7,211 bases of DNA from a virus. Its lineage: Duplodnaviria > Heunggongvirae > Uroviricota > Caudoviricetes. This document shows positions 1 to 7,211 of this stretch, piece by piece. The stretch spans positions 1 to 7,211 of the IMG/VR virus record IMGVR_UViG_648276652_000008. One strand, given 5' to 3'. The position numbers and the translations under genes were made by a program. Each line of letters starts with the position of its first letter. The stretch's first letter is position 1. The notes under the pieces are model-generated. The model searched no databases. It saw nothing but the letters and a program-made list of their open reading frames with translations, and was not told where the DNA came from.

Positions 1-159
1 CCGAAAGCGCACGAACATACTACAAACTGTTGATTTTGGTACACCCAGGCGACGCCCGGCCACAACCCGGGGTAAATGTTCTTCAAAGTGAAGACGTAAA
101 GCTTCAGTGATCCAGGTCCGGTGTTTCATACGATAGTGTCCATTAAAAATGATGGACAT
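1..159 (-). CDS. Partial ORF of unknown function (N-terminal 53 aa, runs off window start); translation MSIIFNGHYRMKHRTWITEALRLHFEEHLPRVVAGRRLGVPKSTVCSMFVRFR has a helix-turn-helix-like segment; possibly a transposase or regulator N-terminus
   Basis: Hand translation of the minus strand. First in-frame ATG after the D stop is at 159, with a second ATG at 129. No stop before the window edge. No clear Shine-Dalgarno. Below the length cutoff of the ORF track. Family not recognised. Confidence 0.3.
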   Translation of the reverse strand, partial: MSIIFNGHYRMKHRTWITEALRLHFEEHLPRVVAGRRLGVPKSTVCSMFVRFR

Positions 160-195
160 TATTTTTGTAGAGCCGGAGGAAACAGACCAGACGGT

Positions 196-486
196 TTAAA
201 TGAGCCGGTTACCAGCCTCCGGCCAGAGCACATCCTCATAACGGAACGTGCCGGACTTGTAGAACGTCAGTGTGGTGCTGGTCTGGTCAGCAGCAACTGC
301 AAGAATGCCAACGGCAGCACCGTCGGTGGTGCCATCCCACGCAACCAGCTTACGGGTGGAGGTGTCCAGCATCAGCGGGGTCATTGCAGGCGCTTTCGCA
401 CTCAACCCGCCGGGCGCGGTTGCGGTATGAGCCGGGTCACTGTTGCCCAGCGGCTGGTAATGGGTAAAGGTTTCTTTGCTCGTCAT
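196..486 (-). CDS. D: Head decoration protein D, lambda-like but 3'-truncated/fused (96 aa vs 110 aa in lambda); probably a pseudogene remnant
   Basis: Translation [40 protein letters not shown]...[11 protein letters not shown] matches lambda gpD almost residue for residue, then ends GNRLI* instead of lambda's ANDETKKRTAFAGTAISIV. ATG at 486 is preceded by AAGGGA. The ORF-track start at 492 (MFM...) is 2 codons upstream of the lambda-equivalent start. Confidence 0.85.
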
Positions 487-495
487 AAACATCCC

Positions 496-1101
496 TTACA
501 CTGGTGTGTTCAGCAAATCGTTAACGGCATCAGATGCCGGGTTACCTGCAGCCAGCGGTGCCGGTGCCCCCTGCATCAGACGATCCAGCGCAGTGTCACT
601 GCGCGCCTGTGCACTCTGTGGTGCTGCGGCCAGAATACGGCGGGCCGTTTCCACGGTCATACCGGGGGTTTCGGCCAGCACGCATGCCTGTTCTTCGCGT
701 CCGTGAGCCTCCTCACAGTTGAGGATCCCCATAATGCGACTGTTTTCTGCCGCAACCGCTGCGGTGATCTGCGCGTTCACGTCCGGCTGCGCAGCGCTGG
801 CGTTCTCGCCCTCCGTCGCTTGCACCACGCCAGTAACGTCAGCCTGCGAAGCAGTGGCTGAAACAGTTGTTGATTGAGTCTCTTTGGTCATTCGCCCTCC
901 TGAGAGACGGGATTTACGTGCATCCAGTGCATCACGCATGACGGTGATCGCATCGGTACTGTTCACAAGTTCATCAGCCAGTCCGGCATCAATGGCCTCC
1001 TGACCGCTGTACACTGCAGCCTCGGTATCCAGCACAGCCTGCACGGACAGGCCGGTATATGCCGACACCTTCTGTGCAAACATCCGGCGGGTTGCATCCA
1101 T
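496..1101 (-). CDS. nu3: Scaffolding protein Nu3, nested in-frame in the 3' part of C (201 aa)
   Basis: In-frame ATG at 1101 (MDATRRMFAQKVSAYTG...) lies exactly 714 nt downstream of the C start, as in lambda where Nu3 shares the C reading frame. No strong Shine-Dalgarno seen, so the call rests on lambda precedent. Confidence 0.7.
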   Translation of the reverse strand: MDATRRMFAQKVSAYTGLSVQAVLDTEAAVYSGQEAIDAGLADELVNSTDAITVMRDALDARKSRLSGGRMTKETQSTTVSATASQADVTGVVQATEGENASAAQPDVNAQITAAVAAENSRIMGILNCEEAHGREEQACVLAETPGMTVETARRILAAAPQSAQARSDTALDRLMQGAPAPLAAGNPASDAVNDLLNTPV

Positions 1102-1795
1102 CCGGGACTGCAGTGTTTCCCGGACATCATCCGGTAGATGGCTGTAGGGGTTGCCATCCACCTTATGGCTGCCGCTGTAAATCAGCGTGATTTCCACGCC
1201 CTGTTTCTCCAGCGCAGCACCGTAATTACTGTGAGCCATCATGACGCCGATGGAGCCTGTCCGGGCGGTCTGCGTGACCAGACGCCGGGAGGCGGCGCTG
1301 GCAAGCAGCTGACCTGCACTGCAGTTCATGTCGTTGGCCAGCGCCCATACCGGTTTTATGTCTCGCACACGGGCGATGATGTCAGCACAGTCAAATGCTC
1401 CCGCCACCATCCCGCCCGGTGTGTCCATATCCAGCAGAATGCCGTCCACCATCGGATCGCTGGCAGCCTGTTGCAGACGGGCGATAATGCCGTTGTAACC
1501 GGTCATCCCCGAATACGGCTGCAGCGCCCGCGTCCGGCTGACCAGCGTGCCGGACACCGGCAGCACGGCGATGCCGTTCATGACCTGATAACTGCGGGCC
1601 TGTCGTGGTCCGTCATCATCAACGGATAACGCCAGCGCCGCGGGTGCCTCTCCGGCAGTCAGGCTGTCGCCGGACACCGCATCCGTCAGGCGGCTGATCC
1701 CAAGCTGGCCTGCAAGCGCACAAAAGAAAACCCGCGCATAGGCGGGTTCAAGCATCAGCGGCTCATTAAAGGCCATACTGGCAATATGCGGGAGA

Positions 1796-1815
<20 letters not shown>
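496..1815 (-). CDS. C: Minor capsid protein C (prohead protease, S49/ClpP-like peptidase family), 439 aa
   Basis: Translation from VTAELRNLPHIASMAFNEPLMLEPAYARVFF... is near-identical to lambda gpC as recalled. GTG start at 1815 preceded by GGAGGAG. The 20-nt overlap with the B 3' end matches lambda geometry. The 484-aa ORF-track version (start 1950) is an upstream read-through extension inside B. Confidence 0.9.
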
Positions 1816-5493
<3,678 letters not shown>

Positions 5494-5522
<29 letters not shown>

Positions 5523-6000
5523 CCGCAAATTCCTTCATTTTTTCAGCGGACTCAACGCATTTATTAGCCCCCTTCGCAACCAGCTCTTTTAGATAAGCCA
5601 ATTGTCTGCCTGTCAATTCAGGGAATTTTCTTTGCATCGAAAGCGGAATACTGTCCAAAACAGATGCCAGTTCTCCGGATAACCGAGACAGGGCAAAAAT
5701 AGAGAAAGCTGTATCAATCACCTTATGCTCTGCAACCTGGTTTTTTAACCGCTGAGCAATAGCCTGTTCTTCCGTCAGGTTAACCCTGGCCTGAAGTAGC
5801 CTTTCCTCAAGATCATTTTCACCACCTGAAGATTTCTGGTTTTGTTGACGTCGCTCGCGATCTATCTCCAGTACAGTTTTAACGTCATAGAAAACCTCTC
5901 TCCCCCGGCGCTCAACAGGAGGAACACCCCATTTATCAAATGCCTGTACTGAGATACCGATGGAGGAGGCCATGTCGCTTTTATTCAATAAAAAGGCCAC
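5494..6000 (-). CDS. Terminase small subunit, Nu1-like but divergent from lambda Nu1 (phage 21 / NohA-NohD type suspected); about 168 aa
   Basis: C-terminal half ...KVIDTAFSIFALSRLSGELASVLDSIPLSMQRKFPELTGRQ... aligns with lambda Nu1 ...ETAFCTFVLSRIAGEIASILDGLPLSVQRRFPELENRH.... N-terminal LNKSDMASSIGISVQAFDKWGVPPV aligns with the Nu1 winged-HTH VNKKQLADIFGASIRTIQNWQEQGMPV. The 3' end overlaps the A start by 29 nt (26 nt in lambda). Start is uncertain: in-frame GTG at 6000 follows GGAGG and is preferred over the ORF-track TTG at 6024 or the ATG at 5973. Confidence 0.8.
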
Positions 6001-6033
6001 AGCCCCTCCATAAACCACCGGCAAAAAAGCAAT

Positions 6034-6042
6034 ACAACAACC
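6034..6042. promoter_or_regulatory. cosB candidate small-terminase binding element (ACAACAACC), R1-position equivalent
   Basis: 9-bp motif ACAACAACC, about 35 bp upstream of the Nu1-like start; one of three copies spaced like lambda R1/R2/R3. Confidence 0.45.
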
Positions 6043-6099
6043 ACGTTTTTTGTAAAACCCTCTGATTTTACATGCTTTTTCGTATAAGAAAGATCATCA

Positions 6100-6108
6100 G
6101 GTTGTTGT
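6100..6108. promoter_or_regulatory. cosB candidate small-terminase binding element, inverted copy (GGTTGTTGT), R2-position equivalent
   Basis: Exact reverse complement of the 9-bp motif at 6034..6042 and 6159..6167, located between them. Confidence 0.45.
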
Positions 6109-6158
6109 GTTTATTTTTCTTTCTTATTACTTATCAAGTAGATATATCAAACGATAAA

Positions 6159-6167
6159 ACAACAACC
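6159..6167. promoter_or_regulatory. cosB candidate small-terminase binding element (ACAACAACC), R3-position equivalent
   Basis: Second direct copy of ACAACAACC, 39-47 bp from the cohesive-end sequence. An AT-rich stretch with ATCAA cores (about 6110..6155) lies between this copy and the inverted copy, where lambda has the IHF site I1. Confidence 0.45.
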
Positions 6168-6205
6168 ATCACCTCAAAAAAACTCGTAAATAGCGAAAAC
6201 CCGCG

Positions 6206-6217
6206 AGGTCGCCGCCC
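6206..6217 (-). other. cos: cosN cohesive-end sequence (12-nt GGGCGGCGACCT on the minus strand), the lambda-type cos site
   Basis: Plus strand AGGTCGCCGCCC is the reverse complement of the lambda 12-nt cohesive end. Flanking bases (minus strand GGGCGGCGACCTCGCGGGTTTTCGCTATTTA) match the lambda left terminus for about 31 nt before diverging. Confidence 0.85.
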
Positions 6218-6249
6218 CGTAGCCTGCCGGATCACCGGAAAGGACCCGC
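6218..6249 (-). other. Conserved lambda right-terminus segment adjoining cosN (expected to contain cosQ)
   Basis: Minus strand GCGGGTCCTTTCCGGTGATCCGGCAGGCTACG matches the last ~32 nt of the lambda right end as recalled (GCGGGTCCTTTCCGGTGATCCGACAGGTTACG) with 2 mismatches; similarity is lost beyond about 6250. Confidence 0.5.
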
Positions 6250-6391
6250 AAAACCGAGAATAAGTATCAATACTATTTGTGATTTGAATGATGCACATCA
6301 TTGAAACGCCATTCATCCATATACCAGCAGCATTCGGTGTTGCACTTCGTAACTCTGTGACTACGGTTATAAAAGCATTGGCAACTTTTGC

Positions 6392-6438
6392 CACCGGCAA
6401 GTCTTCAATGGATTTCCCCTGCCGGTTTTTTATTTTCG
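6392..6438 (+). terminator. Weak hairpin plus T-tract (possible intrinsic terminator on plus strand)
   Basis: ACCGGCA / TGCCGGT 7-bp stem with a ~20-nt loop, followed by TTTTTTATTTT. Stem is short and loop long, so this is weak. Confidence 0.2.
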
Positions 6439-6524
6439 TCGATGCATAACATTGCATTTACATCAATAGCAGCTATTGTCATTAGTATGTTGCATCGATG
6501 CATGGGTGGTATTGGCGGTCTTCG

Positions 6525-6560
6525 CCGACCGGTTCTGTGTAGCTCCCTATGACCGGTTTT
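6525..6560 (+). terminator. Weak hairpin plus T-tract (possible intrinsic terminator on plus strand)
   Basis: Self-complementary ACCGGT copies around 6528..6533 and 6550..6555 can pair across an ~18-nt loop, followed by TTTTTTATTT. Confidence 0.2.
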
Positions 6561-6562
6561 TT

Positions 6563-6599
6563 ATTTCTAAGATTACAGAAGCCCTTCACTGTATGAAGG
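6563..6599. repeat. Perfect 16-bp inverted repeat with 5-bp spacer (TTACAGAAGCCCTTCA ctgta TGAAGGGCTTCTGTAA)
   Basis: Read directly: arms 6563..6578 and 6584..6599 are exact reverse complements. No clean U-tract follows on either strand (plus: AACTCTTCTTACTT; minus: AATCTTAGAAATAAAAAACC). Confidence 0.6.
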
Positions 6600-6777
6600 G
6601 CTTCTGTAACTCTTCTTACTTAGTAATTTTCGCACCTTCCGGTATTTCCATGAGTTGAGAAATCCTCATACTATCCGACAATAATCATCAATATACGATA
6701 AAGACATCTGACCAGATTGCAGTATTAAAAGCACTCATGCAGACTACGCCCCTCATATCATATACAAGGGGATACTG

Positions 6778-7188
6778 ATGGCTCAGGTTGCCATTTTTAA
6801 AGAAATATTTGATCAAGTGCGGAAAGATTTAAACTGTGACCGGTTTTACTCTGAACTAAAACGCCACAATGTCTCACATTACATTTACTATTTAGCCACA
6901 GGTAATATTCACATTGTATTTGAGAGCGATAACACGGTGTTAATAAAAGGTTTCCATGATGTTATTCATGTTAGCTTTTGCAGAGACACGCGACTTATAG
7001 AAACTTACCTTCATAAGTTGAAATCAAGAGAAATCACATTTCATGAATACAGGGTAAATCTGGCTAAAGCTGGAGTTTTCCGATGGGTTACAAATATCCA
7101 CGAACACAAAAGATATTACTATACCTTTGACAACTCATTATTGTTTACCGAAAGCATCCAGAACACGACTCAAATTTTTCCACGCTAA
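6778..7188 (+). CDS. ybcV: DUF1398 family protein (YbcV/YdfO-like prophage accessory protein), 136 aa
   Basis: ATG at 6778 preceded by AAGGGGA at the right spacing; clean ORF with stop at 7186..7188. Translation [47 protein letters not shown]...[24 protein letters not shown] matches my recollection of E. coli DLP12 YbcV / Qin YdfO. Symbol is from memory, not a search. Confidence 0.75.
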
Positions 7189-7211
7189 ACCATAACGTCC
7201 GGTTTGATCCG

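Follow-up and report, generated by a model that had tools for sequence, protein, structure and literature searches.

The window analyzed here, a stretch of 7,211 nucleotides, carries the left arm of a lambda-like Escherichia coli prophage in which the head-decoration gene D breaks off exactly where one end of the insertion sequence ISCro1, a member of the IS66 family, begins. We consider it likely that ISCro1 entered D by simple insertion, with duplication of the octamer CAGCCTCC. The coincidence of the breakpoint with the known terminus of this element is far beyond chance. The features around the junction are as follows.

1-212, minus strand: right-hand, tnpA-proximal 212 bp of ISCro1 (IS66 family), running off the left edge of the window
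191-212, minus strand: terminal inverted repeat (IRR) of ISCro1, GTAACCGGCTCATTTAAACCGT read from the tip, recognized by alignment with the other end
1-159, minus strand: tnpA, codons 1-53 (the complete IS66-type accessory protein has 225 aa), with its ATG at 159-157
213-220, strand not applicable: CAGCCTCC, the 8 bp of D adjoining the IS tip; predicted target-site duplication
196-486, minus strand: truncated head-decoration gene D', made up of gpD codons 1-91, GNRLI and a TAA at 198-196
213-7211, minus strand: prophage left arm with cosN, Nu1, A, W, B, C and D'

The breakpoint is the terminus of ISCro1

A preliminary description of this DNA had placed the end of lambda identity at 212/213, inside D, and had read a lambda-like product up to ...EDVLWPEA followed by a five-residue foreign tail and a TAA stop. 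Translation, alignment and BLAST bear this out. Identity to the DNA of lambda, and to that of a closely related prophage in Escherichia coli EC43, begins exactly at base 213 (CAGCCTCCGGCC...), while bases 1-212 are other DNA, and query base 213 is also the start of the BLAST matches in 81 phage records and in most E. coli genomes.

The comparison of bases 1-212 with bacterial genomes that the preliminary description had proposed was carried out by BLAST and returned ISCro1 at 100% identity. The E. coli records with a match number 2,418, chromosomes and plasmids together, and in 1,848 of these the identity is 99% or higher; copies identical over all 212 bases occur in well over a thousand. The 212 bases are exactly the last 212 bp of a 2,699-bp ISCro1 in the enterotoxigenic E. 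coli (ETEC) strain H10407, and in the NCBI annotation the matching stretch belongs to an 'IS66-like element ISCro1', at its tnpA end. By the ISfinder convention, two sequences belong to the same IS at a DNA identity of at least 95%; here 212 of 212 bases agree with copies that NCBI annotates as ISCro1. The element was first named in Citrobacter rodentium and is common in E. coli chromosomes and plasmids.

To locate the terminus we used seven complete copies, that of H10407 and six others at unrelated sites (a plasmid IS3 remnant, a prophage C gene in two cases, a chromosomal island, the int/xis region of another prophage and a RepB-type gene). The H10407 copy is 2,699 bp long, has the ends GTAAGCGACTC... 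and ...GAGCCGGTTAC, and is flanked by an 8-bp direct repeat, GATCAAAC. All seven copies share the length of 2,699 bp and the terminal sequence ...GGTTAC, and each has its own 8-bp target duplication. Since the break in the window falls at the same base as the tip in all seven, 212/213 coincides with the IS terminus to the nucleotide; the tip ...GGTTAC (base 212) directly adjoins the D sequence CAGCCTCC... (base 213). The ends are also of the IS66 type, which have GTAAGCG or a similar sequence at the exact end: the tip reads GTAACCGGCTC... inward from base 212, and the opposite end reads GTAAGCGACTC... When the IRR, GTAACCGGCTCATTTAAACCGT, is aligned with the opposite end, GTAAGCGACTCGTCAGAACCGT, the two agree at 16 of the first 22 positions.

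ISCro1 has been described as an IS66-family element of 2,824 bp that disrupts or alters E. coli loci and inserts in regulatory regions (PMC8764528); this length differs from the 2,699 bp that lie between the target duplications in each of the seven copies measured here. In the complete copies, the tnpA-proximal end, the terminal sequence and the start of tnpA are all identical to the 212 bases of the window, whose copy differs from the known ones solely in its insertion site.

Lambdoid phages are mosaic and sharp borders of identity are common among them, so that a border such as this one might be read without any mobile element, bases 1-212 being either a divergent 3' end of D with a spacer or a mosaic joint with another phage. 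Against this, BLAST finds no match to bases 1-212 in phage records, the match to ISCro1 is 100%, the ORF is tnpA and the break lies at the exact IS terminus. We therefore regard this reading as refuted, with only the slightest chance of being correct. Of the three origins that had been put forward for the foreign DNA (an IS insertion, a deletion joint and a recombination joint with another element), the first was thus right as to what the DNA is, namely an end of ISCro1, and the far side of the element lies outside the window.

The start of tnpA

The preliminary description had also noted an ORF in the same frame after the D stop, resembling the N-terminal DNA-binding domain of a transposase or regulator. 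Translation confirms the ORF: the minus strand of bases 1-159 reads MSIIFNGHYRMKHRTWITEALRLHFEEHLPRVVAGRRLGVPKSTVCSMFVRFR, in the frame of D and after its TAA. The start agrees with that of the annotated protein WP_001339397.1 in the loci designated L001 and L004-L008, and tnpA begins 37 bp inside the foreign DNA. The proposed assignment holds in kind, but not with regard to a helix-turn-helix (HTH) in the visible part. In the complete ISCro1 TnpA of 225 aa (L001 8482-9159), the Pfam domain HTH_Tnp_1 covers residues 102-159, outside the window, while the 53 visible residues give sub-threshold HTH signals only (HTH_23, E = 0.07; Sigma70_r4, E = 0.08). The N-terminal extension of about 100 residues may contain a second, divergent DNA-binding motif.

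The complete copies that are identical to the window over the 212 bp contain the three-gene set tnpA-tnpB-tnpC, of which the window has only the 53 codons of tnpA. The Pfam entries matched in complete copies are HTH_Tnp_1 in tnpA, TnpB_IS66 in tnpB and, in tnpC, DDE_Tnp_IS66 (PF03050), zf-IS66, LZ_Tnp_IS66 and the IS66 C-terminal element.

A 7-bp inverted repeat, TGTCCAT (137-143) and ATGGACA (152-158), overlaps the ATG at 159-157, as had been pointed out, and the corresponding hairpin (UGUCCAU/AUGGACA in the minus-strand RNA, 137-158) appears in the predicted minimum-energy fold. It is internal IS sequence that is kept in every ISCro1 copy and is distinct from the terminal repeat of the element. 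The repeat is statistically unremarkable. There is one repeat with 7-bp arms and a loop of 3-10 nt in bases 1-212 and there are 11 in the window, and at least one occurs in 7% of shuffles; the fold z-score of the repeat region is only -2.09. With a chance-level frequency and a weak z-score, the repeat is not evidence for translational control. We rejected it as a control hairpin at the start of tnpA, and any such role for bases 137-158 is speculation.

The truncated gene D

Lambda gpD is a well-characterized head-decoration protein (PF02924; PDB 1C5E, 1VD0 and 7VII), and the D' product shares its residues 1-91 at 98% identity, with two substitutions (Q13L and S44T); over the same residues it matches the gpD of the EC43 prophage exactly. 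After ...EDVLWPEA the D' product ends in GNRLI*, where lambda has ASDETKKRTAFAGTAISIV*. The product is thus 96 aa long compared with 110 aa for the full-length protein, the last 19 residues (92-110) having been exchanged for GNRLI. It scores 64.8 bits against the Pfam HDPD profile (PF02924, cut-off 29.1), with residues 3-91 aligned to profile positions 2-98 of 116, and the gpD chains in the PDB align with it over residues 1-93 only. It is reasonable to conclude that gpD is damaged by the interruption; the broader suggestion of the preliminary description, a head module that does not function at all, would be an inference beyond this.

The chimeric protein has already been deposited at NCBI (WP_000200992.1 / WWX32603.1), where it is found on a contig of 5.10 Mb. 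Its NCBI name is 'head decoration protein', with no flag for a pseudogene or for truncation by an IS. The 90% cluster of WP_000200992.1 has 716 members, which are mostly partial gpD fragments at contig ends. In the Logan assembly of SRR088908, a contig of 1,751 bp is identical to bases 185-1935 of the window and stops 28 nt into the IS.

These records bear on whether the junction might be an artefact in which the assembly joined the prophage path wrongly to a repeated IS end. Copies of an IS are classic points of breakage and mis-joining in short-read assemblies, and the window and the Logan contig both end within the element. However, the IS tip is the exact point of the join, as it would be after transposition, whereas a mis-join caused by repeat collapse is expected inside the repeat and not at its border with unique DNA. 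In addition, the chimeric protein is recorded twice, on the 5.10-Mb contig and in a separate run. We consider an artefact very improbable.

The prophage arm and its uninterrupted counterpart in EC43

The remainder of the window has the following features.

496-1815, minus strand: gene C, S49 head protease/scaffold, 439 aa, intact (protein identical to the EC43 copy; annotation)
1796-3397, minus strand: gene B, portal, 533 aa, intact (one substitution relative to EC43; annotation)
3394-3600, minus strand: gene W, head-tail joining, 68 aa, intact (identical to EC43)
3597-5522, minus strand: gene A, large terminase, 641 aa, intact (identical to EC43)
5494-6000, minus strand: small terminase in the Nu1 position, 168 aa according to the EC43 annotation (identical to EC43 WP_000874941.1)
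6206-6217, minus strand: cosN, 12-nt cohesive-end sequence GGGCGGCGACCT (exact and single match in the window)
6778-7188, plus strand: DUF1398 gene (ORF list and EC43 annotation)

The genes stand in the lambda-type order cos-Nu1-A-W-B-C-D, and the products of A (641 aa), W (68 aa), B (533 aa) and C (439 aa) have the same lengths as in lambda. By BLAST, bases 213-700 are 98.2% identical to lambda DNA. The 12-mer GGGCGGCGACCT, the cosN of lambda, precedes the small terminase gene by about 200 bp, in an AT-rich stretch (6025-6777) that has no annotated gene in EC43. The small terminase starts with GTG and has 168 aa in the EC43 annotation, and the longest ORF here (5494-6024) would give 176 aa. 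In the otherwise similar prophage of H10407 the small terminase has 181 aa (L001 14672-15217), which indicates that the Nu1 position holds different alleles beside near-identical A genes. An Rfam scan of the whole window found no RNA family.

E. coli EC43 (NZ_CP196712) has the same prophage without the IS, and the two differ by 4 mismatches in 6,999 bp over window bases 213-7211 (99.94% identity). The C, W, A, small terminase and DUF1398 proteins are identical. The four differences are at window bases 2801, 2906, 2917 and 6663, and the only one that changes an amino acid is that at base 2917, in codon 161 of the portal gene B (P here, S in EC43). In EC43, D is intact and encodes all 110 aa; E, FI, the head-tail joining genes and the tail genes come after it. 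The octamer CAGCCTCC is present as a single copy at the empty site in EC43, which corresponds to the point of IS insertion, as well as in lambda.

The proposed insertion

From the junction and the empty site we propose the following course of events. Codons 91 and 92 of D were most likely separated by the transposition of an ISCro1 of 2,699 bp, with tnpA, tnpB and tnpC, oriented like the phage late operon. Read-through from D adds GNRLI and a stop, yielding a gpD that lacks its last 19 residues. A simple insertion, by a cut-and-paste or a copy-in route, would leave an 8-bp target duplication. The window holds one IS end, with one copy of CAGCCTCC, and the second copy is a prediction. It should be found at the far end of the IS, about 2.5 kb to the left of the window, and beyond it the remaining 57 bp of D should come first, then E and the genes for the tail. 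The DNA left of the window would accordingly be expected to contain 2,487 more bases of ISCro1 and a far junction that reads ...GTCGCTGG, CAGCCTCC and then GTAAGCGACTCGTCAG...; under simple insertion, ...GTCGCTGGCAGCCTCC would pass directly into GTAAGCGACTCGTCAG... about 2.7 kb left of base 212.

ISCro1 is present in the same head module in four other strains or positions, with a target duplication and with prophage sequence on both sides, which makes simple insertion the likely reading here as well. The insertion appears to be recent, given that the IS end is identical to active copies, that the flank is 99.94% identical to an uninterrupted prophage and that the upstream head genes are intact.

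The far side of the element could have had a different history, in which ISCro1 entered D and a later deletion, inversion or recombination between ISCro1 copies replaced the DNA beyond it. What remains would be a truncated, defective prophage that has lost its connection with the 3' end of D, with E and perhaps with the tail genes. As the window stops within the IS, nothing in it contradicts such a rearrangement, and carrier genomes often have many copies of ISCro1 (in up to 18 places) that could serve as substrates for recombination. On the other hand, the 8-bp duplication has been kept in all seven complete copies, prophage sequence continues on either side of all four other copies in lambda-like head modules, and the flanking prophage shows no decay. 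We judge such a rearrangement to be rather unlikely. The deletion joint that had been suggested earlier finds nothing in its favor within the window, and the accompanying statement that there is no E gene overreaches: the window ends 212 bp into an element of 2.7 kb, and with a simple insertion E would be expected about 2.5 kb past the left edge. Under our preferred reading of a simple insertion of ISCro1 into D, E may well be intact beyond the IS.

We looked for both junctions in public collections. The near junction, as an exact pattern of 33 nt, has no match in the IMG/VR viral contigs, the GTDB representative genomes or the JGI metagenomes, and none of the 5,426 complete E. coli genomes compared by BLAST has an insertion at this site in D. 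The far junction as predicted was looked for with two queries: an exact pattern of 32 nt has no match in the GTDB genomes or the JGI metagenomes, and a synthetic query of 101 nt has no continuous match in the same 5,426 E. coli genomes, which are the complete ones in RefSeq. These collections lack the near junction too, so the absence of the far junction is uninformative either way. The absence of the junctions from the genome and metagenome collections searched indicates that the allele is rare.

Consequences for the prophage and its annotation

Lambda phages that are defective in D cannot stabilize heads containing a full-length genome. In the prophage described here, functional gpD is probably absent and the genome is probably 2.7 kb longer. 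For both reasons, the prophage is probably defective or, as a phage, of poor viability.

Both the IS and the phage gene are known, and the chimeric protein was already deposited; this is an ordinary event and does not represent a new kind of feature. Beyond annotation, its importance is small. WP_000200992.1 should be understood as the product of a truncated pseudogene fused to five IS-encoded residues, and catalogues of prophages should score this one as IS-disrupted and probably defective. It also illustrates cleanly how an IS terminus can account for an abrupt drop in identity within a phage gene.

ISCro1 in other lambda-like head modules

The other insertions in closely related head modules are located as follows, with the coordinates of the complete ISCro1 copies on the last line.

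5' end of E: ETEC H10407 and four similar genomes
Middle of C: E2865
3' end of C: 94_0962
Complete ISCro1 copies in C-D-E blocks: L001 6514-9212; L005 514-3212; L010 4943-7641

The prophages of H10407, E2865 and 94_0962 are closely related to the one described here and have the same IS in the same C-D-E block, with 8-bp duplications. Their insertion positions differ from the D site in the window, which indicates independent insertion events, and the E2865 copy has the opposite orientation relative to the head genes. Including the D insertion of the window, there are five independent ISCro1 insertions within about 1.3 kb in different strains.

Such recurrence could simply reflect the abundance of both ISCro1 and lambda-like prophages in E. 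coli, and we think it quite doubtful that the element prefers the C-D-E part of these head modules as a target. If such a preference were real, ISCro1 would repeatedly inactivate (domesticate) prophages of E. coli rather than hit them at random.
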